Source: an uncultured Clostridium sp.
GTDB taxonomy: Bacteria; Bacillota; Clostridia; TANB77; CAG-508
Assembly (NCBI GenBank): GCA_964437015.1
Contig: CAYTEX010000001.1
Coordinates: 2,028 to 33,662, forward strand
DNA: 31,635 nucleotides
Direction of reading: 5' to 3'
Shown here: one piece after another, positions 1,087 to 12,973 of the stretch
How the letters are laid out: each line of letters opens with the position of its first letter
Numbering within the stretch: the first letter of the stretch is position 1
Made by a program: the position numbers and the translations under genes
The notes under the pieces: generated by a model
Database searches by the model: none
What the model saw: the letters and a program-made list of their open reading frames with translations, nothing else
Told to the model about the DNA's origin: nothing

Positions 1087-1163
<77 letters not shown>

Positions 1164-1180
1164 AAATAAAATACTTATAT

Positions 1181-1209
1181 ATTATACTTTTATTTTTAGA
1201 ATTTTGCAA
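1181..1209 (-). promoter_or_regulatory. sigmaA promoter for tRNA-Arg(ACG)
   Basis: TTGCAA-17 bp-TATAAT on the minus strand, just upstream of the tRNA. Confidence 0.8.
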
Positions 1210-1228
1210 GAGATAAAGCCATTTTTGT

Positions 1229-1257
1229 TTGACTTTTTTTAAATATGTTGTTATAAT
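1229..1257 (+). promoter_or_regulatory. sigmaA promoter for tRNA-Arg(CCT)-tadA
   Basis: TTGACT-17 bp-TATAAT with an extended -10 TG. Confidence 0.85.
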
Positions 1258-1270
1258 AGGCAAAGAAAAT

Positions 1271-1346
<76 letters not shown>

Positions 1347-1356
1347 ATTTTTTTAT

Positions 1357-1833
1357 ATGGAGAATAAGTTGAATATCAATGAAAAATATATGAAAGAAGC
1401 TTTAAAAGAGGCTCAAAAGGCTTATGAAAAGCTAGAAGTTCCGGTTGGAGCAGTAATTGTTAAGGATGGAAAAATAATAGCTAGAGCATATAACCAAAAA
1501 GAAACAAAATTTGATACTACAAAACACGCAGAAATATTGGCTATTCAAAAAGCAAGTAAAAAATTAAAATCATGGAGATTAATTGACTGTGAAATGTATG
1601 TAACATTAGAGCCTTGTCCAATGTGTGCAGGAGCAATTATTCAATCCAGAATAAAAAAGGTATATTATGGTGTATCTGATGAAAAGACAGGAGCAGTTGG
1701 TTCTAAGTTGAATCTATTTAAAGACTATAAATTTAATCATAATGTTGAAGTTGAAAACGGAATACTTACAGATAAGTGTAGGGAGTTATTACAAAATTTC
1801 TTTATAGAATTAAGAAAAGAAAAATCTAAATAA
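1357..1833 (+). CDS. tadA: tRNA adenosine(34) deaminase
   Basis: HAE and TLEPCPMC Zn motifs, EVPVGAVIV. The true start may be TTG at 1369, which has SD GGAG 6 nt upstream; the ATG at 1357 has no SD. Confidence 0.95.
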   Translation: MENKLNINEKYMKEALKEAQKAYEKLEVPVGAVIVKDGKIIARAYNQKETKFDTTKHAEILAIQKASKKLKSWRLIDCEMYVTLEPCPMCAGAIIQSRIKKVYYGVSDEKTGAVGSKLNLFKDYKFNHNVEVENGILTDKCRELLQNFFIELRKEKSK

Positions 1834-2673: not shown

Positions 2674-3963
2674 TTGGTTAAAATGGGATATAAATATAAT
2701 AATGAGAATAAAAGCCAAATTGACGAATCATTAAGTGCGGCAATTGCATCTCTTGAAGCAGCAAAATCTAAAGCTGGTGAAATAGTGATTCCATCAGATT
2801 TTAAATGTGCTAAAGAATTAGAAGATATACTATCAGGTATTAATGAGGTAAGTTTGGGAGCAATATCAATAGGAATACAAGTGGCTGAAAATAACTTTGA
2901 AAGCACAGAACTTTCTGCGAAAAATGCAGCGAGTGCTCTTGTGTTTGAAATAAAGACGAAATCAGAAAGCATTTTCGAAAAAAAAGAAGGTTCTACGAAA
3001 AATGTAGTGAATGGGGTTATGTATAATATAAAGGAAAGAGCCGAAAACACTTTTTTACCGGTATGTCTTATGAAAGTTGAATTAAATAAATATGCAAATG
3101 AACAAGTACATTTAAATGATGAAGAGAAAAAAGTAATAAAAGAACAAATTAAATTAATAAATACAACTACTATAAAAAATAGCAATACGGATATTGAAAC
3201 ATATAAAAAAAATTTTATGAATGCTATAAATTTAGTTAATGAGTACGAAAAAAATCAACACGATACAATTCAAGAAGGCTATTCAGTTGACAATGAAGTA
3301 GAGGAAAAAATAAGATTGGATAATATACAAGAATATATGCAGGATATAGTGAATGCAAGTACACATGTGAAAGATGACGGATATTTATATACATATAAAG
3401 ATGGCAAAGAAGAAAGATTAACAGTTGAAGAATGGCTAAAGATAGTAAAACAAACAGCAGATGAAATATATGAAAATTCATCAAGGCAAGGAGGAACCAA
3501 TTACTATGGCAATTCAGGAACACCTGAAGCAGGACAATATCAATACTTAAGAACGGATGGAAATCAAGGATATATTGAAGTTTATGAAGTAGATCATGCT
3601 AGTTTAGTGTCATGTAATAGATTAATATCTATGGCACTAAATAATGCTGGTTTATATGATGATCAGACACTGGGAGGAGATAATGTTTGTCAGGAAGAAT
3701 ATTTAACAGGGCATGGATTCGATAAGGTTGAAGATTTAACAGCTATTAGGCCAGGAGACATAATTGTTATTAATGCGGGATCATTTATGCATTATTTTGT
3801 TGTTAATGAATATAATGAGGAAACTGAATTATGTACAAAATTTGATATGGGAAGCGATAAAAGAATTAATACCGTACAACCCAATGAAGAAGTTCCAATA
3901 GTTGAAGAAGGATGGGCAGCGAATGGGAGAGTATTAGATTCAATATATAGACTAAAAGAGTAA
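2674..3963 (+). CDS. Hypothetical protein with a putative C-terminal NlpC/P60 or CHAP-like papain-fold domain
   Basis: 429-aa ORF with SCNRLISMALNNAG...RPGDIIVI...MHYFVV...FDMG, resembling a Cys-His-Asp papain fold. The ORF is solid; the function is inferred. Confidence 0.6.
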   Translation: MVKMGYKYNNENKSQIDESLSAAIASLEAAKSKAGEIVIPSDFKCAKELEDILSGINEVSLGAISIGIQVAENNFESTELSAKNAASALVFEIKTKSESIFEKKEGSTKNVVNGVMYNIKERAENTFLPVCLMKVELNKYANEQVHLNDEEKKVIKEQIKLINTTTIKNSNTDIETYKKNFMNAINLVNEYEKNQHDTIQEGYSVDNEVEEKIRLDNIQEYMQDIVNASTHVKDDGYLYTYKDGKEERLTVEEWLKIVKQTADEIYENSSRQGGTNYYGNSGTPEAGQYQYLRTDGNQGYIEVYEVDHASLVSCNRLISMALNNAGLYDDQTLGGDNVCQEEYLTGHGFDKVEDLTAIRPGDIIVINAGSFMHYFVVNEYNEETELCTKFDMGSDKRINTVQPNEEVPIVEEGWAANGRVLDSIYRLKE

Positions 3964-4010
3964 TAAAAAAGCATTAGTAGTTTTAAAAACATACTAATGC
4001 TTTTTTTATT
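3962..4010. terminator. Bidirectional intrinsic terminator
   Basis: AATAAAAAA-GCATTAGTA / TACTAATGC-TTTTTTTATT between convergent genes. Confidence 0.85.
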
Positions 4011-4636
4011 TATTTTGTTCCAAAGATTCTATCTCCGGCATCTCCTAATCCAGGTACGATGTATGCATTTTCATTTAGTTTTTCATCAACTGAAGCTGTA
4101 TAAACTCTTACATCAGGATGAAGATCTTCTATTTTTTGTATTCCTTCAGGAGCTGCTATTATACACAAGAATTTTATCTTTTTTACTCCATCTTTTTTTA
4201 ACATTGCTATTGTATCACATGCAGATCCTCCAGTAGCAAGCATTGGATCCAAAATTATAACTTCACGAGAGGCTATATCTTTTGGCATTTTATAAAAATA
4301 GCGTACAGGTTCATGAGTTTCTTCATCTCTATATAAACCAATATGACCTATTTTTGCGTTTGGAATAGCTTTTATTAATCCATCAAGCATACCAGTACCC
4401 GCCCTTAAGATTGGTACAAAGGCATATTTATTTTCATTTAATTTATATGCTTTTGTTTTACATATTGGGGTTTCTATTTCAACTTCTTCAAGCTCTGCAT
4501 CTGACATAGCTTCATAGCATAGAAGTGTTGCAATTTCACTAATAATTTCTCTAAATTCTTTTGTTCCAGTTTTTTTATCTCTTATTATTGATAATTTATG
4601 CTTAATTAAAGAATTGTTTAATATATTTGGTTTCAT
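4010..4636 (-). CDS. upp: Uracil phosphoribosyltransferase
   Basis: [21 protein letters not shown] motif, [17 protein letters not shown]. Confidence 0.98.
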
Positions 4637-4691
4637 TTTTCTTCCCTATAATAAATAGATTTAGGTTTTTTAGTTTAACCTATAAACTTTT

Positions 4692-6188
4692 TTATTTTGC
4701 TTCATCAGGAATTACTAAATTTAATATAATTCCAGCGATTGCAGCTAGACTCATTCCTGAAATTTGTACTGAAAGACCATTTCCAGTAGCTATTGAAAAT
4801 GCTGCTCCTCCAAGTCCTAATACTAGCATAGCTGAAGCAATTATAATGTTTTTATTTTTTGTAAAATCGACTTTGTTTTGAATTAATACTTTTAGTCCAT
4901 TAACTGATATAAATCCATATAAAAGAAGAGATACTCCACCTAATACTGGATTTGGTATTGTTTGAACAAGTGCGGTAAACTTTCCTAAGAATCCTAAAAC
5001 TATTGCAAAAATTGCAGCTAAACCTATAACCCAAACAGATGCATTTCTTGTCATTCCGACTACAGATGTATTTTCTCCATATGTTGTATTAGCAGGACCT
5101 CCTAAAAAACCAGCTACAAAAGTTGCAATACCATCACCTAAAAGCGTATTTTCAAGACCAGGTTTTTTTAATAAATCTCTATCTATAATAGTGCTTAATG
5201 CTTTATGGTCTCCTATATGTTCTGCCATTGTAACTAAAGCTATAGGTGCCATTGTTAATGCTATCATAAAATTTGGTGTATAATTTACAAAAGGTATATA
5301 GAAGTTAGGCATTTGTATCCAATTGGCTGACTGTACTAGGCTAAAATCAACTAAGCCTGTTAAACATGATACAAGATATCCTGTAACAATTCCAACTAAA
5401 AATGGTATAATTTTGAAAAATCCTTTTGCTTTAGTCATTACTAATGCTGTTGTCATAAATGTAATTAATGCTATAACAGGTCCTTTCCATTTTGCACCAC
5501 TTAGTTTTTCTTGTTTTACTGATTCAATAATTATTGTTTTTCCTGTTTCTTCATCTATAGTTTCAGTTTTAATAATTTCGGTTTCATTTGTAACAACAAC
5601 AGATTCATCTGTTATTGTTTCTTTAGCAATTCCATCAACATATTCTATTTTTGCATAAGGTATTTCGTTATATTGAACATCAAAAATATTTCCGACTGCA
5701 CTACCTGCAAGTCCAAGTCCAATAATCATAATCATTGGTCCGATAACAATTGGTGGTAATAGTTTATCTATCCAGCTTTTTCCTAAGAATCTAACTATTA
5801 TTGAAACAATAATATATACTATACCAACTACCATTACTCCAGTCATTGCACCTGATATTCCACCAGATATTCCTCCGTTATTTGCACTTCCTGCAATATA
5901 AGCAGCAATTATTGGTGATATAAATGCAAATGAACTTCCTAGAAATACGGGAGACTTTGCTCTTGTACATAAAATATAAATTAATGTACCTATACCTGCT
6001 GTTACTAATGCAACTGCTATAGATAATGCTTGTCCATCTACTCCTGCTGATGCAATTCCTGCATTTACTAAAATTGGAACTAATACTGTTGCTCCAAACA
6101 TTGCAAAAACATGTTGAAATGACAATATAATCCATTGCCAAACTGGTGGTTTTTCGTTTACATCATAAAGCAATTTTTTTTCTTCCAT
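4692..6188 (-). CDS. uraA: Uracil permease (NCS2/UraA family) with a long inserted loop
   Basis: FQHVFAMFGATVLVP, FLGSSFAF, EHIGD, NTTYGEN and GGVSLLLYG motifs; adjacent to upp; SD AAGGAGG. Confidence 0.93.
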   Translation of the reverse strand: MEEKKLLYDVNEKPPVWQWIILSFQHVFAMFGATVLVPILVNAGIASAGVDGQALSIAVALVTAGIGTLIYILCTRAKSPVFLGSSFAFISPIIAAYIAGSANNGGISGGISGAMTGVMVVGIVYIIVSIIVRFLGKSWIDKLLPPIVIGPMIMIIGLGLAGSAVGNIFDVQYNEIPYAKIEYVDGIAKETITDESVVVTNETEIIKTETIDEETGKTIIIESVKQEKLSGAKWKGPVIALITFMTTALVMTKAKGFFKIIPFLVGIVTGYLVSCLTGLVDFSLVQSANWIQMPNFYIPFVNYTPNFMIALTMAPIALVTMAEHIGDHKALSTIIDRDLLKKPGLENTLLGDGIATFVAGFLGGPANTTYGENTSVVGMTRNASVWVIGLAAIFAIVLGFLGKFTALVQTIPNPVLGGVSLLLYGFISVNGLKVLIQNKVDFTKNKNIIIASAMLVLGLGGAAFSIATGNGLSVQISGMSLAAIAGIILNLVIPDEAK

Positions 6189-6221
6189 TGAAGATTCCTC
6201 CTTTTAAATTTTTTTGGATAT

Positions 6222-6249
6222 AAAAAAAATACTATTAAAAATAGTATTT
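6222..6249 (-). terminator. Putative attenuator terminator in the uraA leader
   Basis: Minus strand AAATACTATT-TTT-AATAGTATTT followed by more Us, ~35 nt before the uraA ATG. The stem is weak, with one G-C pair. Confidence 0.5.
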
Positions 6250-6341
6250 CAGAAAGGAAAAATAGAAAAAGAAATAGAACTTGCATAAAGGCAAGTAGCT
6301 TTATTTTTTTTAAACAAAGAATCTTTTAATAATTTTTCCAT
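6249..6341 (-). CDS. Putative 30-aa leader peptide (MEKLLKDSLFKKNKATCLYASSISFSIFPF)
   Basis: Strong SD GGGAGGTG before the ATG at 6341; the TGA stop overlaps the 5' arm of the leader terminator. Confidence 0.55.
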   Translation of the reverse strand: MEKLLKDSLFKKNKATCLYASSISFSIFPF

Positions 6342-6359
6342 TTTATACACCTCCCAGAA

Positions 6360-6388
6360 ATAATACAATATTTAGAAAAAAATTTCAA
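6360..6388 (-). promoter_or_regulatory. sigmaA promoter for leader-uraA-upp
   Basis: TTGAAA-17 bp-TATTAT on the minus strand; predicted start site ~6353-6355. Confidence 0.65.
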
Positions 6389-6478
6389 GTATTTATGAAA
6401 AAAAAATAAATTTTTTGAAATTTTATGTCGAATAAATATGCATAATTATAGAAAATTAAATAAAATTTAAAATAGCTA

Positions 6479-6507
6479 TTGCCAAATTTGAAATTTTGTT
6501 GTATATT
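6479..6507 (+). promoter_or_regulatory. sigmaA promoter
   Basis: TTGCCA-17 bp-TATATT upstream of 6525. Confidence 0.6.
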
Positions 6508-6524
6508 ATGTGAGGTTGTAAAAA

Positions 6525-6842
6525 ATGGGAAAGGAAGGCAAAGTGAAAACATTTTTTGATGGAGTATTTATTTCTAAAGAAAAACTAGATCAAGCAGGAA
6601 TTGAATACCCCATAAAGCTAGAATATTACAAAACATTAGGAGAAGAAAATGTTGAAGCAAAATTTGGAATAGAAGTTGTAAAAACCGAATTTTTTAATGG
6701 CAATGTTAGAGTAGAGACAAAAGAACTAAAAAGTATAACAGATAATGAAGACGAGCAAAACAAGTTATTAACTATATTAAGAAATAACGAGATTACACCA
6801 ATTGGAGTAGATGATGTTTTGCAAGAATTGTTACAAGAATAA
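6525..6842 (+). CDS. Small conserved clostridial protein, DUF6514-like
   Basis: SD GAGG. KFGIEVVK...LLTILRNNEITPIGVDDVL resembles DUF6514 from memory; no search was run. Confidence 0.6.
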   Translation: MGKEGKVKTFFDGVFISKEKLDQAGIEYPIKLEYYKTLGEENVEAKFGIEVVKTEFFNGNVRVETKELKSITDNEDEQNKLLTILRNNEITPIGVDDVLQELLQE

Positions 6843-6883
6843 GTAACAGAAATGGAGAAATAAATGGAAAAAAAATTATAAAG

Positions 6884-6913
6884 AGATAGTATAAACAAGT
6901 ATACTATCTTTTT
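6884..6913 (+). terminator. Intrinsic terminator
   Basis: AGATAGTATA-aacaag-TATACTATCT followed by TTTT. Confidence 0.7.
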
Positions 6914-7108
6914 AGTTGTATTTAAAAAAAGTAATTGATGAAATTTGTTAATTAATAGTAATTTTGCTACTAATGAAATACAGATGAAAGAGGTATTGGA
7001 AAACATAGTAAAATCGTCAAATATTAACACTGTGTATTTTTTACTTAAAAGTAGCAATAATCCTATATTTATGGATTTGTATTGATTTTTTGAGAAATGA
7101 TACAAAAT

Positions 7109-7125
7109 TGTAATATAAATGTAAT
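7109..7125 (+). promoter_or_regulatory. WalR/OmpR-type direct-repeat box
   Basis: TGTAAT-ataaa-TGTAAT, ~65 bp upstream of TTGACA (7191), ahead of the large surface-protein gene. Confidence 0.5.
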
Positions 7126-7378
7126 CAAAACTTAATTATTGTTCTACACTTACGTAAATATAAGTTTCAAAACTATAGAAAAAAAGCATATTGACAAAAA
7201 TAAAAAAAAAATTAAAATAATAATTAGAATGTTTTCTCGTCAAGATTAGGATATGACAGATTAACAGCAAAAAATTAATGATAGTATTTAACAATCATTG
7301 AATTAATTATGAGAAACAGAATAGAGCTAGTTTTACATAGCAAATAAATATATTAAAGAACAATTAGGGGGATAAAAG

Positions 7379-10300
7379 ATGAAGTATACAAATAAGAGAG
7401 TTAATTCTATGAGTAATACATTTAATAAATGTATATGTAAAATAATATTACTGATTATTGTTTTTTGCGTATATTTGACGGAAAATGCATATGCAGAGGG
7501 TGAAACAAAGAACATAACAAGAGCATATTTTTGTTCAGAAATTATAAAATCAAATGCTACAGGTGATTGTATTCTATTAGAAAATTATGATTCAAATGGT
7601 AATAAAGTATATGGTCTAATTGATACAGGAAATCCAATAACAGATGATGATGGAAACATACTTCCGGTTGTTAAGAATTATTTAGAAAATCATGGAGTAA
7701 CATCATTACAGTTTATGCTTATAACACATGCACATAATGATCATTTGGGTAATGCAGAACAAGTTTTAGAAAATTTTAATGTAGATACATTATATATTCA
7801 AGAAGCCGATAATGCATGGTCTACGAATACTCAGCAAGAAAAATTTCAAAATTTAATAGAGAAAGCTGTAGATAAAAATGTAAGAAAAATTATAGGAATA
7901 AGTTGGGCATTTCTAACTCATAGTGAGTATAGTCCTAGTTTTGATGAAACAATCAGAAATAAAATTATAAGTAATTCAAGTAATCAATCAAGATTTGAAG
8001 CATTTAATGAAACAAATACAGTATTTAGTTTTGGAAGTAGCACTATACAATTATTAAATTGGCAGTTATTCGATACAAATGGAAATCAATATATAACCGG
8101 AGTTACAACTAATACAACGAGAGAAAAGAAAGGAGAAAATAACAATTCTATAGTTGCTTTATTAACACAAGGAAACAAAAAGGCACTATTTACAGGAGAT
8201 TTAAACAATTTAGATAAAGATGAGGAGAGAGGAATACTTGGAGATGAAGATAGATTAAAAGATATTATAGGTGATGTTGATTTCTTAAAAGCTGGACATC
8301 ATGGTTTTGCAAATTCAAATACAGAGGACTATTTAAATACAATAAAACCAGAATATGTAGTAATAACAACGAATGAAAGTAATAAAATTTACTTTCAAGA
8401 TTATCTAGATGAGAATAATGTTGATTATTTACGTGTAAAGCAAGACGAATATGGGGTAATAGCAACTTTTACAGAAACAGAGGTTTTTTTGGGATTGGAA
8501 ACTAAGAACACTCCATTTAAGTTCTTAAATGGAACTCCATACTATATTGCAGATAAATATGGTAATTATCATGAGGTATCATATAGCATAGAATATGTGG
8601 ATAAAAATATAGAGATAGATAGTTGGCAAGAATTAAAAGAAATAATTGACAGTAATAAAAATGAAGTTGTAGAAATAGATGATCAGAACAAAATATTTAA
8701 AACGTATAGATTAATAGTAAAATTAAAACCTGGAGATTGGAATGCAAATGAGTCAATAAAAATAGAAAAACAGCAAGATATTAGGCTGTATGCGGAAGAT
8801 GATATAAATATATTAAGAGGTCAAGAATTAAAAGAATACTTATTTGAAACTGAAGGAAATTTGACTTTAGGAACTGAAGATATGACAGGAAGTATTATTT
8901 TAGATGGAAACAAAGAGAATGTAACATCTAATTCATCGTTAATATCAGTAGAAAAAGGAAAATTGAATTTATACAAAAACATAACATTATGTAACAATAT
9001 GAATAAAGTTACAGAAATGAACTACAATGGTTCTAATAATAAACAGTATAATGCTTATGGATCTGGTATATATTGCAAAGAAGGAACTGTTAATATATAT
9101 GGGGCAAAAATTATTAATAATGAACAAAGTATAGATCTTGATAGTATAATGATTTTACCAAAAGCAATTAATCATAATTATCAATTTAGAGCATTAGGAG
9201 CAGGAATATATGTCAATTCTGGAAAGCTTAATATGTATGAAGGAACAGTTAGTGGAAATAGAACAACAAATAATTCGAAAATACAGACACATCCTAATTT
9301 TTCTATCGTTAAAGAAAATGGTGAAATTTCTCAATATTCTGCTGGAGCAGGAATATATACTACAAGTTCAGATGTAAACATAGAAGGGGGAGAAATTTTA
9401 AATAATTCGATTACAAATAATGAAAATACATTAATTTCTACTTCTACAAGTTCAAAATACAGTACAAATATAACATCTCTAAATACAAATATTTTTGGAG
9501 TTGGATTAACTGTATCAGGAGGAACATTAAGAATATCTAATAATTTAAATGTATTAAATAATAGTGCTGAAAATAATTCAAGAATAGAAATTCAAGAAAA
9601 TACATCAGTTAATAGTTCGGCATCTTCTAAAATAGTAGGACAACAAGTATATATAAGTACCTTGGATACAGCTGAAATAAATGGATTGAAGATTTTTGGT
9701 GGTAATACTATTAATAATGCTCAAATAATTAATAATGGAAACATTGGAAGTGATGGAACTGGTGAAGTTGATACAGAAAAAACGGGTGGAGGATTATTAT
9801 TAAAAGGTATAAATAATGTTAATGTTAATAATTTAACAATTGAAAATTGTAGTAGTGATAAAGGAGGGGGAGTATATACATCTTCTTCAAAAGGAATAAT
9901 ATCAAATTCGGAAATTAAAGACAATGTTGCAACTATAGATGGAGGAGGAGTATATATTGCCAATAAATCTTGCAATATAGAATTAACTAATCTACAAATA
10001 AATAACAATAAAGCAGAAAATGGCAATGGAGGAGGAATATATACACAAGGTACTCTAAAGGTATCAGGAGAAAATACGCAAATTTCTGATAATGAAGCTA
10101 AAAATTCCGGTGGTGGAATAATGACTATTGCTAAAACAGAATTAAATGATGGAACAATAAGTTATAATAGGACAGATACAGGATCTGGCGGAGGTATTCA
10201 AGTAGACGGAACTCTAGTAATGAACGGAGGTATAATACAGAATAATACCGCAAAGAAAACTGGAGGAGGAGTAGATTTTACAAATGGAATAGTTGAAAAG

Positions 10301-12973
10301 TATGGAGGGACAATAGAAAACAATACAGCAGAAATAGAAGGAAATAATTCATATCCAGATCTTTCAAATAAGCATAAAATAACTTATGACTATAACAAAG
10401 GAACTCATACATTTGACACTAATTCATATATAGATACAGATTATAAAGTAAATTGGGATAAGGATTTTACTATTGAGTCAATTATGAACATACCTGAATT
10501 AAGGAAAAAATATCTAATTGCTGGGAACTATGCTAAAAATTCTAGTACAAGTAAAGACTTAAGCTTGGTAATTACAGAAGATAATAAAATAAGAGTATGG
10601 ATAAATGGAGCGCAGAGAGGTTTAACAACAGATACAATAGCAGCAAATACAGACATAGCAATTACATTTAATTGGGAAGCAAGTACGAAGACATATACAT
10701 TAACATCAACAGGAACTGATTCAAATACAAGTGTAACAGGAACATATAATATAACAGGAACCAATACAAGAAATATAAGATTTGGAACAATTGACTACAG
10801 GGCAGATAATACTGTATTGAAGCCATATACATCAAAACAATTTAGAATTTCAGAAGATGTAGTGTGTAATAGTCTTTTAGTAAATTTGCCAGATAATGCA
10901 ACAGTTCCTGAATATGTATTGAAAGGTTGGTATACAGAAAGAAATAATGGTGTAGAGGTAACACCAGAATCAAGGATGCCAGAAACAGATACAATTTATT
11001 ATGCACAATGGAATGAAAAGACTATAATATTTGATGATCAAACAATAACAAAGCAATATAGTACAAGAGCACAAACAGTAAATATAACACCAGCAACAGG
11101 AGAATCAGAAAAATATACGTATGAAAAAGTTTCAGGTGAGCCAGATATAGTAGTTTCAGGAGATGGAACAATAATTATACCAGCGGAAAAAGCAGTAGGA
11201 ACATATACAGTGGTAACAAAGGCAGTGGATAGTATTTCAGGGGTTGAAGCGAATGGAACATATACTATAATAATAGAAAAAATATCAGCAGTAACTCCAA
11301 TTGTAATGGCTTATAGTGGAGAATATAACGGAGAAGCTCATGGAGTGGTAGTAACAGCGGCAACTGGAGGAGAAGTACAATATAGTGAGGATGGAAGAAA
11401 TTATTCAACGACAGCTCCATCATATAAAGATTTTACAAATGGAGAAAAAACTATATATGTAAAGGTTGTAGGAGATAGCAACCATAATGATTCAGAAGTA
11501 GTAACATCAACAATAAATATAACAAAGAAAACAATAACAGTTACAGCAGACAACAAAAATAAAGCACAAGGGGCAGAGAATCCAACATTTACAGCAACAG
11601 TAGGTACAACAGGAGTAGCTGGAGAAACAGGAAGAATTACAGGAAATCCAACAACAACGGCAACGACATTATCAGCACCTGGAACTTATGCTATTACACA
11701 AGGAGAAGTAGTATTAGCAGATAATTTACCATTTAAAGCTATAAATTATCAAATATCATTTGTAAATGGGGAATTAAGAATAGATCCAAAAGTAAGCTTT
11801 GATAAAAATGGTGGAGAAGGTTCAATGTCTGAACAAATAGTAACATATAATACTAATACAGCATTAACCCAAAATACATTTACAAGAGAAGGATATAGTT
11901 TTGTAGGATGGAATACACAACCTGAAGGAACAGGAACAGATTATGCTGACCAAGCAAATGTTGAATTAGCTGAAAACATAACTTTGTATGCAAAATGGAC
12001 GACTAAATCATATAATTTAACATATGAAGTAAAAGGTGGAACAAATCATCCAGATAATCCGAGAGAATATACAGTAGAAGATGTAATTGTCTTCAAGAAT
12101 CCAACAAGAGAGGGATATGAATTCTTAGGATGGTATGAAGATGAGAACTTTACAATACCAAAAGATGGAATATCACATGAAACAGGAGATAAGACAATAT
12201 ATGCAAAATGGAAAGTAAAAGATAATGTACCGTATAAAGTGGAACATTATAAAGAGACAACAAACGGAAATTATGAATTAGCAGTATCAGATGATTTTAT
12301 AGGAACAGCAAATGAAACAGTAATAGCAACACCAAGAGAATTCGAGGGATATAAAGAAAATATAACACACCCAGAAAGAATATCAACAGGAGAAGTAAAA
12401 GAAGATGGAAGTGTAGTATTAAAATTATATTATAACAAAATAAAATATACAGTAACATTTGATCCAAAGAATGATACAACAATAGATGACCAAATAGTAT
12501 TCCAAGGAGATAAGGCAGAAGAACCAACAAAACCAATAAGAGAGGGATATATATTTGAATATTGGTATTATTTAAATGATGAAGAAGAGCCAACAAAATA
12601 TAATTTTGATAATTCAGTACTAAAAGATGTTTACCTTATAGCAAAATGGGAAGAAGTGCCAGTGGAAAATGGTGATGAAGAGCCAAAAAATGAAGAGCCA
12701 AAAAACGAAGAACCAAAAAACGAAGAACCAAAAAATGAAGAACCAAAAAATGAAGAGCCAAAGAATGAAGAACCAAAAAATGTAGAGCAAAAAAATGGAG
12801 AACAAAAGGATGTGAATCAAGAGAAAGACGGGCTAAAGAAATCATCAGAAAATACCAGCAAGCTACCAAAAACTGGATTTAAAACAGGAATAGTATTATC
12901 TGGAATAACGTTAATAACAGTAGCAACAGTAAGTGGAGTAGAATATATCAAAATAAAGAAAAGAATGGAATAA
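7379..12973 (+). CDS. Sortase-anchored (LPKTG) surface protein: MBL-fold hydrolase (ComEC/Pce-like), beta-helix repeats, LamG-like, InlB B-repeat, MBG-like and MucBP-like domains
   Basis: Signal peptide ending ...TENAYA; LIDTG, THAHNDHLG, FTGDL, KAGHHG; GG(G/A)(I/V)Y repeats; several F-x-GW-Y...YAKW B-repeats; LPKTG followed by a TM segment and a KIKKR tail. Confidence 0.85.
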   Translation: MKYTNKRVNSMSNTFNKCICKIILLIIVFCVYLTENAYAEGETKNITRAYFCSEIIKSNATGDCILLENYDSNGNKVYGLIDTGNPITDDDGNILPVVKNYLENHGVTSLQFMLITHAHNDHLGNAEQVLENFNVDTLYIQEADNAWSTNTQQEKFQNLIEKAVDKNVRKIIGISWAFLTHSEYSPSFDETIRNKIISNSSNQSRFEAFNETNTVFSFGSSTIQLLNWQLFDTNGNQYITGVTTNTTREKKGENNNSIVALLTQGNKKALFTGDLNNLDKDEERGILGDEDRLKDIIGDVDFLKAGHHGFANSNTEDYLNTIKPEYVVITTNESNKIYFQDYLDENNVDYLRVKQDEYGVIATFTETEVFLGLETKNTPFKFLNGTPYYIADKYGNYHEVSYSIEYVDKNIEIDSWQELKEIIDSNKNEVVEIDDQNKIFKTYRLIVKLKPGDWNANESIKIEKQQDIRLYAEDDINILRGQELKEYLFETEGNLTLGTEDMTGSIILDGNKENVTSNSSLISVEKGKLNLYKNITLCNNMNKVTEMNYNGSNNKQYNAYGSGIYCKEGTVNIYGAKIINNEQSIDLDSIMILPKAINHNYQFRALGAGIYVNSGKLNMYEGTVSGNRTTNNSKIQTHPNFSIVKENGEISQYSAGAGIYTTSSDVNIEGGEILNNSITNNENTLISTSTSSKYSTNITSLNTNIFGVGLTVSGGTLRISNNLNVLNNSAENNSRIEIQENTSVNSSASSKIVGQQVYISTLDTAEINGLKIFGGNTINNAQIINNGNIGSDGTGEVDTEKTGGGLLLKGINNVNVNNLTIENCSSDKGGGVYTSSSKGIISNSEIKDNVATIDGGGVYIANKSCNIELTNLQINNNKAENGNGGGIYTQGTLKVSGENTQISDNEAKNSGGGIMTIAKTELNDGTISYNRTDTGSGGGIQVDGTLVMNGGIIQNNTAKKTGGGVDFTNGIVEKYGGTIENNTAEIEGNNSYPDLSNKHKITYDYNKGTHTFDTNSYIDTDYKVNWDKDFTIESIMNIPELRKKYLIAGNYAKNSSTSKDLSLVITEDNKIRVWINGAQRGLTTDTIAANTDIAITFNWEASTKTYTLTSTGTDSNTSVTGTYNITGTNTRNIRFGTIDYRADNTVLKPYTSKQFRISEDVVCNSLLVNLPDNATVPEYVLKGWYTERNNGVEVTPESRMPETDTIYYAQWNEKTIIFDDQTITKQYSTRAQTVNITPATGESEKYTYEKVSGEPDIVVSGDGTIIIPAEKAVGTYTVVTKAVDSISGVEANGTYTIIIEKISAVTPIVMAYSGEYNGEAHGVVVTAATGGEVQYSEDGRNYSTTAPSYKDFTNGEKTIYVKVVGDSNHNDSEVVTSTINITKKTITVTADNKNKAQGAENPTFTATVGTTGVAGETGRITGNPTTTATTLSAPGTYAITQGEVVLADNLPFKAINYQISFVNGELRIDPKVSFDKNGGEGSMSEQIVTYNTNTALTQNTFTREGYSFVGWNTQPEGTGTDYADQANVELAENITLYAKWTTKSYNLTYEVKGGTNHPDNPREYTVEDVIVFKNPTREGYEFLGWYEDENFTIPKDGISHETGDKTIYAKWKVKDNVPYKVEHYKETTNGNYELAVSDDFIGTANETVIATPREFEGYKENITHPERISTGEVKEDGSVVLKLYYNKIKYTVTFDPKNDTTIDDQIVFQGDKAEEPTKPIREGYIFEYWYYLNDEEEPTKYNFDNSVLKDVYLIAKWEEVPVENGDEEPKNEEPKNEEPKNEEPKNEEPKNEEPKNEEPKNVEQKNGEQKDVNQEKDGLKKSSENTSKLPKTGFKTGIVLSGITLITVATVSGVEYIKIKKRME
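12677..12811 (+). repeat. 15-bp coding tandem repeat: (EEPKN)x7 plus VEQKN and GEQKD, a cell-wall spacer
   Basis: GAAGARCCAAARAAY units read directly in the sequence. Confidence 0.95.

Follow-up and report, generated by a model that had tools for sequence, protein, structure and literature searches.

A stretch of 31,635 nucleotides (nt) from an uncultured Clostridium sp. (contig CAYTEX010000001.1, positions 2,028 to 33,662 of the forward strand; this whole stretch is called the window below) carries on its minus strand the genes uraA and upp, preceded by a leader with a short open reading frame (ORF) that ends at the foot of a predicted terminator. Comparison with related loci strongly supports the reading of this leader as a PyrR-independent, translation-dependent leader-peptide attenuator, as far as its architecture can be judged from sequence. 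Beyond the architecture, we think it somewhat probable that the leader controls uraA-upp with the ribosome as the antiterminator, and that it senses uridine triphosphate (UTP) through the slowing of RNA polymerase (RNAP) on a U-rich tract. A preliminary description of the window, made from its letters alone, had proposed a UTP-sensing, translation-coupled attenuator; the translation-coupled architecture has withstood comparison with other genomes, while UTP as the signal fits the U tract and is something that we infer. Translation of the leader ORF and function of the terminator are likewise predicted from the sequence.

All the elements named in that description, i.e. a promoter, a Shine-Dalgarno (SD) sequence, a 30-codon ORF, a hairpin, a 28-nt tract, a TGA at a U-tailed hairpin and uraA, were recovered on the minus strand, and Pfam assigned the two downstream genes to the expected families. 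The coordinates are as follows:

6383..6388, minus strand: -35 hexamer TTGAAA of the leader promoter, from the sequence and a promoter scan
6360..6365, minus strand: -10 hexamer TATTAT, from the sequence and a promoter scan; invariant in the alignment of the window's sublineage
6348..6355, minus strand: SD sequence GGGAGGTG of the leader ORF, read from the sequence
6249..6341, minus strand: leader ORF of 30 codons plus TGA, MEKLLKDSLFKKNKATCLYASSISFSIFPF, with the ATG at 6341-6339 and the TGA at 6251-6249
6279..6296, minus strand: internal hairpin ACTTGC-CTTTAT-GCAAGT, a candidate pause hairpin, from folding
6251..6278, minus strand: 28-nt U/C tract forming the last 9 codons of the leader ORF; 20 U, 6 C, 2 A and 0 G
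6222..6250, minus strand: intrinsic terminator (predicted attenuator), stem 6250-6240 / 6236-6226, loop UUU, U run to 6222
6197..6204, minus strand: SD sequence of uraA, AAAGGAGG, read from the sequence
4692..6188, minus strand: uraA, uracil/xanthine permease family, 498 amino acids (Pfam Xan_ur_permease, E 1.9e-88)
4010..4636, minus strand: upp, uracil phosphoribosyltransferase, 208 amino acids (Pfam UPRTase, E 9.7e-78)

The leader promoter has a 17-nt spacer and matches the consensus at 10 of 12 positions, and it was the top minus-strand hit of the promoter scan across positions 3900-7500. Since the SD core lies only 5 nt past the -10 hexamer in the window, compared with a family median of 7 nt, the transcript would start at the SD or just before it. 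At the other end of the leader, the terminator arms GAAAUACUAUU and AAUAGUAUUUU, separated by UUU (6250-6226), lead into the U run that ends at 6222, and the TGA (6251-6249) overlaps the first stem bases. This structure folds with -7.2 kcal/mol (z -4.75), and none of 200 shuffled sequences folded equally well. The 33 nt between the last base of the U run and the uraA ATG (6188) leave no room for a separate uraA promoter, so that the terminator, if functional, would necessarily gate uraA. The roles of the two gene products, uracil import and its conversion to UMP, fit a control of pyrimidine salvage.

The leader was then compared across two samples. A UraA scan of species-representative genomes gave 80 loci, and a second, independent Upp scan of metagenomes gave 30 unique new uraA loci. 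The layout promoter, SD, small ORF (sORF), terminator and uraA was present in 31 of the 80 loci, which are the nearest relatives of the window with UraA identities of 53-73%, and in 25 of the 30 metagenome loci, i.e. in about 56 loci overall. These nearest relatives are uncultured gut metagenome-assembled genomes (MAGs) labelled variously as Clostridium, Clostridia, Bacilli or Tenericutes. The conserved order runs from the promoter to the SD, a start codon 5-8 nt further on, an ORF of 26-46 codons (78-138 nt), a hairpin with a U tail and the SD of uraA. The -35 element of the family reads TTG(C/A)(A/T)(T/A) and is followed by 17 nt and the -10 hexamer, and an SD motif of the form (A/G)GGGTG, AGGTG or GAGGTG was found 5-8 nt ahead of the start codon in all 31 leaders. 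With the median distance of 7 nt from the -10 hexamer to its core, the SD falls at the very 5' end of the mRNA, so that ribosome loading would take place as early as is physically possible and no 5' structure could interfere with it. The hairpin plus U tail occupies the same position in 31 of 31 leaders, with stems of differing sequence, and in most cases 30-45 nt separate the terminator from the uraA ATG. Judging by its recurrence in related and metagenome loci, the layout is not a product of chance.

While the reading frame of the leader ORF is kept, its peptide is not. In the 31 leaders, frame 0 contains no stop codon, compared with 135 and 86 in the +1 and +2 frames, and composition-matched shuffles were free of stops just 5% of the time. 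The aligned leader peptides show 22% column identity, Met1 is the sole residue common to all of them, and no Pfam family matched any of 29 leader peptides. Within a subclade of 10 sequences the body of the ORF is hypervariable, while no variation is seen in the last 3 codons, the TAG, the terminator or the U tail. Nonsynonymous changes between close pairs were at least as numerous as synonymous ones (2 versus 2; 4 versus 1). On this comparative evidence, it is the openness of the leader ORF that is under selection, and not the sequence of the peptide, in line with the expectation of the preliminary description that relatives should share the architecture and not the peptide. The alignment revealed neither a regulatory codon run nor a consistently repeated residue. 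An amino-acid attenuator of the trp, his or phe type was rejected, since there is no codon run or conserved residue and no alternative 2:3 antiterminator.

Where the stop codon lies relative to the terminator is also conserved. Its first base lies 1 nt ahead of the stem in 17 of the 31 leaders; the same offset occurs in 16 of the 25 leaders of the second set. Altogether, 21 of 31 leaders have the stop in the interval from 9 nt upstream of the stem start to 2 nt within the stem, and the other 10 have it deeper in the hairpin; in none of the 31 was it further upstream than 9 nt from the stem. By this position, a ribosome finishing the leader ORF would overlap the 5' arm of the terminator. The search for alternative pairings of the 5' arm gave a mean of -0.6 kcal/mol, compared with -9.8 kcal/mol for the terminators, and none of the 31 reached -4 kcal/mol; with no competing pairing for this arm, the ribosome would be the only candidate antiterminator. 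It has been reported for E. coli that termination at tR2 drops from about 90% to less than 10% when a stop codon is shifted from 28 to 5 bp ahead of this terminator (PMC4824070), and the stop positions of the leaders fall in the range where E. coli ribosomes abolish termination. According to the same work, terminators lying no more than ~100 bp into a coding region keep functioning, because the first ribosome has not yet caught up with RNAP, and pyrBI is cited there as the case of a short leader in which translation and transcription become coupled through pause sites (PMC4824070).

Several loci depart from this geometry. The frame reads through the terminator in the variant L010; more generally, in L010 and its metagenome twin L112, in L021 and in L084 it enters or crosses the terminator instead of stopping at its foot. 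The stem-abutting stop is found in these loci one frame over, right after a run of 5-7 T (TTTTTTAG or TTTTTAA), and L084 differs from L088 by one extra T only. These off-frame stops could be homopolymer assembly errors, real variation or a slippery site. Like L010 a further clade member beyond the 31 leaders, locus L019 has lost the sORF completely; its promoter is still there, together with a hairpin whose U tail is shortened, and this could be the attenuator in a decayed or constitutive form.

The preliminary description had noted that no PyrR binding loop was visible, and this was confirmed by both searches made for it. The PyrR box UCCNGNGAGG, searched as a regular expression, was absent from the window and from all clade leaders, and Rfam 15, run at gathering and at permissive thresholds on the window and 17 clade loci, reported nothing on the leaders. 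The best Rfam hit on the window leader was caiA with 22.4 bits (gathering threshold 55.5, E 0.21), all others having E >4. As positive controls, 15 outgroup loci were run against Rfam, where PyrR matched L029 with 62.8 bits and SpF44 matched Streptococcus. The PyrR box was present in 26 more distant loci (Streptococcus, Granulicatella, Erysipelothrix and others), none of which has the sORF, so that the sORF leader and the PyrR box are mutually exclusive among the 80 loci.

The U/C tract stands out from the remaining sequence of the window. Recounting gave the 20 U and 6 C that had been claimed for 6278-6251; with these 26 pyrimidines, it has no counterpart among 23,868 windows of 28 nt in 16 genes, none of which contains at least 24 pyrimidines, and the coding strands of the window are 62.4% purine. 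Across the family, the ORF turns from A-rich to U-rich: its first 30 nt are 55% A and 27% U, its last 30 nt contain 53% U (61% in the second set) compared with about 32% in uraA, and the U-rich stretch spans the last ~48 nt. Compared with hydrophobicity-matched uraA windows of the same genomes, U is raised at all three codon positions (.48/.54/.57 versus.22/.41/.37), and third positions in the tract favour U, whereas the genomes favour A. G at the first codon position drops to.09 in the tails from.37 in the matched uraA windows, with Val, Ala and Gly codons depleted. Within the window's sublineage the block CAAGTTYTATTT is kept although the sequences differ in its reading frame: three use frame 1 and two use frame 0, which gives SSISFSIF or QVLFLF depending on the frame. 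Similarly, L039 and L020 retain the U tract and the terminator across a frame-shifting indel. Since U is enriched at all codon positions and conserved independently of the frame, selection would act on the nucleotides and not on a hydrophobic peptide; these data indicate nucleotide-level rather than peptide-level selection on the tract. The hexamer TTNTTT, which according to PMC11602163 and PMC6851288 is the motif of NusG-dependent pauses in Bacillus, is 14 times denser in the tails than in uraA and occurs in 26 of 31 tails, at a density no higher than the U content predicts.

As for the hairpin within the ORF, a candidate pause hairpin, it is conserved with compensatory changes in the window's own sublineage but not across the family. 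In the window, the hairpin (6296-6279) folds with -5.6 to -6.5 kcal/mol (z about -2.5 to -2.6). An alignment of 5 sublineage sequences has 97% of its cells paired, with 2 of 7 pairs changed on both sides and loop lengths of 3 to 6 nt; only 15 of 500 shuffles reached this pairing, and slid controls gave 14-46%. The idea of a family-wide pause hairpin was dropped, as the mean z was -0.6 and only 5 of 31 leaders had a significant one. Judged from folding and alignment, the internal hairpin is a lineage-specific accessory and not a defining part of the leader.

On the basis of these comparisons, we propose the following mechanism. Transcription would start a few nt ahead of the SD, and the leader ORF would be translated while RNAP is still on the leader. 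With sufficient pyrimidines, RNAP would arrive at the terminator, about 130 nt from the start, before the first ribosome, the hairpin would form and transcription would stop. When UTP is scarce, RNAP would slow down on the U-rich last ~48 nt of the ORF, the U-rich loop and the U tail, and in the window's sublineage the preceding hairpin may add to this slowing. The ribosome would then catch up, sit on or near the stop codon and cover the 5' arm, no hairpin would form and RNAP would enter uraA-upp, with the result that uracil is imported and converted to UMP. Purine-rich coding strands have been linked to runaway (uncoupled) transcription, the purine content of coding strands being 54% in B. 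subtilis (PMC13323073). Given this signature of runaway transcription, OFF would be the default state of the leader and RNAP slowing its natural trigger. The purine bias of the window is extreme in that its 62.4% A+G is far above the B. subtilis value; on the strand with most genes, the GC skew is about +0.3 and the AT skew about +0.25.

Several observations weigh against this proposal. The caveat of the preliminary description that the terminator is weak proved justified, since that of the window, with -6.7 to -7.2 kcal/mol and one G-C pair, is the second weakest among the 31 family members. The significant internal hairpin is confined, as said, to 5 of 31 leaders, with a family mean z of -0.6. 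Ordinary gene-end terminators in the clade lie within 10 nt of a stop codon in 49% of cases and within 0-3 nt in 6 of 57 (10.5%). Abutment of stop and terminator is therefore several-fold enriched in the leaders and not unique to them, which weakens its value as a unique signature, while the exact offset of 1 nt is strongly enriched; on the other side of the account, ordinary terminators near stops fit a lineage whose ribosomes normally lag, in which OFF would be the default. U-richness also yields hydrophobic peptide tails resembling transmembrane (TM) segments, and the tract may thus still have a coding explanation. A search of about 330 kb of clade DNA gave no second pyrimidine gene with a convincing leader of this kind, and upstream of stand-alone upp no such leader was found in 31 metagenome loci, including the syntenic loci L083 and L089. 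Given these leaderless upp genes, the element travels with uraA and not with a wider pyrimidine regulon, and the pyrimidine signal is without regulon-level support. If transcription and translation are strongly uncoupled in this lineage, UTP limitation may also fail to slow RNAP sufficiently. Finally, the RNA material consisted of Logan metatranscriptome contigs of related strains, which are fragmentary and carry neither 3' ends nor strand information.

With these points in mind, other explanations have to be considered. The ribosome and the terminator could form the same switch with translation capacity or amino-acid supply as the signal instead of UTP. Read-through would then reflect how fast ribosomes move over Phe, Ile, Leu and Ser codons, how fast the cells grow, or the stringent response, and the U-richness would serve merely as a fixed NusG-type pause or an unstructured spacer. 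The geometry ties read-through to the ratio of ribosome to RNAP speed, whatever alters that ratio, TTNTTT is no more frequent than expected from the U content, and the lack of a second pyrimidine gene with the leader also speaks for such a signal. However, no codon or residue is consistently repeated, U at synonymous third positions opposes the A preference of the genome and points to the nucleotide as the selected feature, and it is hard to see why a salvage operon should take up less uracil when translation is slow. To our knowledge, all known regulatory systems of uraA and upp (PyrR; UTP-sensitive start switching in E. coli) sense pyrimidine nucleotides. We consider a translation signal unlikely, if still worth bearing in mind. 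Termination could also be set by a factor acting in trans. This could be a protein that binds the RNA at the U/C tract or around the 5' SD, or else Rho, which would load on the pyrimidine-rich RNA that is left exposed in an untranslated leader. A G-free pyrimidine tract is unique among the sense transcripts of the window, exposed pyrimidine-rich RNA is a target of Rho in B. subtilis (PMC13323073), and the conserved 5' AGGGTG could serve as a binding site besides being an SD. Against this, the conserved intrinsic terminator makes Rho unnecessary, and Rho features have been measured over windows of >150 nt (PMC13323073), whereas the tract extends over 28-48 nt and contains only about 9% C family-wide. 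Apart from the U-richness, no conserved motif overlaps the terminator arm, and binding of a factor would not explain an open frame that ends at the stem, so that we regard this explanation as quite unlikely.

That the sORF encodes a genuine small membrane peptide with a leaky terminator of its own, uraA being read through at a constant rate, appears improbable to us. Many of the peptides do have a basic N-terminus and a hydrophobic tail like a TM helix, and gene-end terminators near stops are common in the clade. But column identity is 22%, nonsynonymous changes at least equal synonymous ones, and the frame in which the same nucleotides are read differs between close relatives. Several tails (for example ...NHIFIY and ...DLDKEIKYI) are too little hydrophobic for a TM helix, the G-starting codons for Val, Ala and Gly that are usual in real TM segments are found at.09 instead of.37, and uraA has no promoter of its own, which means that the terminator would necessarily gate it. 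We give hardly any credit to reiterative transcription of the pyrG type, where RNAP would stutter on GGG when U is scarce and the resulting poly-G would pair with the C/U tract and block termination. Most leaders do have GGGTG at the expected start, 5-9 nt past the -10 hexamer, and a C/U-rich tract downstream. This model was rejected because the base after GGG is A and not U in the window (GGGA), the G run is missing in several members (AAGGTG, AGAGGTG) and the arms are not C/U-rich. Moreover, the distance to the -10 hexamer varies from 5 to 9 nt, the tract is situated upstream of the terminator arm and not within it, the 5' arms themselves being A-rich or mixed, so that pairing of poly-G would not open the hairpin, and the maintained ORF would be left unexplained. 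The attenuator with the ribosome as antiterminator and UTP as its signal is thus the reading that we retain.

Among known systems, the closest in design is the pyrBI attenuator of E. coli with its leader pyrL. Both have a promoter, a short leader ORF, a U-rich pause region and an intrinsic terminator ahead of the structural genes of a pyrimidine-metabolism operon, and in both there is no RNA antiterminator alternative, the ribosome itself blocking the hairpin (in the uraA leader, as we infer). They share no sequence homology, and the leader peptides have no Pfam match to the pyrBI leader family. The uraA leader belongs to low-GC Bacillota gut MAGs and precedes genes of uracil transport and salvage, not of biosynthesis; its ORF, at 26-46 codons, is the shorter of the two and usually finishes at the terminator foot instead of running past it, its SD lies at the very 5' end of the mRNA, and a pause hairpin is present only in some sublineages. 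Its organism, unlike E. coli, has a strong purine bias of the kind tied to uncoupled transcription (PMC13323073). By sequence comparison, the uraA leader is an analogue and not a homologue of the pyrBI attenuator. With PyrR-dependent attenuation (RF00515; SpF44 in Streptococcus), which acts on pyr, uraA and pyrP in Bacillus and other Firmicutes, it shares the regulated gene uraA/pyrP and an intrinsic terminator 25-70 nt before the start codon, but it has the sORF in place of a PyrR loop and of an antiterminator/anti-antiterminator pair.

In E. coli, upp-uraA and codBA are controlled by UTP-sensitive start-site selection and reiterative transcription. There, the same genes are concerned and UTP acts directly on RNAP without a protein regulator; that control operates at initiation on a T run after the start, whereas the leader studied here has no T run at its start and has a terminator gated by the leader ORF. 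The class of UTP-sensitive start selection and reiterative transcription is described in PMC6524683. The yxjB (tlrB) leader of B. subtilis (PMC6851288) is likewise a leader-peptide attenuator of a Firmicute, in which a T-rich NusG-type pause synchronises ribosome and RNAP. It responds to ribosomes stalled by antibiotics and works through alternative RNA structures; the uraA leader has none, and its proposed signal is a nucleotide.

Within the clade, upp comes after uraA in 25 of 32 loci. Divergent from the leader promoter region, the window carries a DUF6514 gene (E 7e-11) at 6525-6842 (+), and the AT-rich intergenic region that holds both promoters measures 183 nt, with the leader ATG (6341) at one end and the DUF6514 start (6525) at the other. 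L083 and L089, close relatives of the window organism with Upp 84-85% identical, have the same divergent DUF6514 neighbour; upp follows directly behind the intergenic promoter region, and uraA, sORF and terminator are absent, which suggests that the uraA-plus-leader cassette was gained or lost as a unit. One contig of 443 nt (run X28, contig 24), labelled metatranscriptomic although its kind is uncertain, is >90% identical to the 5' end of uraA and to the DUF6514 gene. Its 225-nt stretch between these flanks is unalignable to the 258-nt leader region (window 6208-6465), suggesting that the leader evolves much faster than its flanks. Three contigs binned as Methanobrevibacter or Methanobacteriaceae (L023, L026 and L070) have a uraA 48-61% identical to that of the bacterial clade, without sORF or terminator upstream, and L023 and L070 also carry upp; they represent either bacteria-to-archaea transfer in the gut or mis-binning. 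Elsewhere in the window (1087-1833), tRNA-Arg(ACG) (-) and tRNA-Arg(CCT) (+) stand back to back and are immediately followed by the gene of a 158-residue TadA-like deaminase (MafB19-deam / dCMP_cyt_deam_1), which thus adjoins the gene of its expected substrate tRNA. At 7379-12973 (+) there is a gene for a protein of 1864 amino acids with an N-terminal signal-like segment, C-terminal EPKNE repeats, an LPKTG sortase motif and, after it, a TM anchor; this is a cell-wall-anchored surface protein, implying a wall of Gram-positive type.

Nucleotide-sensing, ribosome-mediated attenuation through polymerase speed is textbook knowledge, essentially from the enterobacterial pyrBI operon, while Firmicutes are thought to rely on PyrR and, in Bacillus at least, to uncouple transcription from translation. 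The literature searched yielded no description of a uraA leader of this type in Firmicutes. The combination of a 5'-end SD, an sORF turning from A-rich to U-rich and a stop at the terminator foot would give an annotation-ready class of leaders for uncultured gut bacteria, and would offer a compact, protein-free, uracil-responsive expression switch. The generality of the principle would be shown by a conserved analogue that arose independently and acts on another operon. Such an analogue would also let one ask, in a natural setting, if and when ribosomes catch up with RNAP in organisms with runaway transcription. A further and more tentative reading, which we would place a little short of probable, is that in a whole low-GC lineage of gut Bacillota a UTP sensor that needs no protein has taken the place of PyrR in the control of uracil uptake, and that all that is conserved of its sORF is that it stays open, turns U-rich and stops at the foot of the terminator. 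On this reading, it would be the first attenuator of the pyrBI style, in which the polymerase slows and the ribosome catches up, outside Proteobacteria. Coupling that is induced by starvation and not constitutive would then be the regulatory principle in organisms where, to judge from their purine-biased genes, transcription normally outruns translation.

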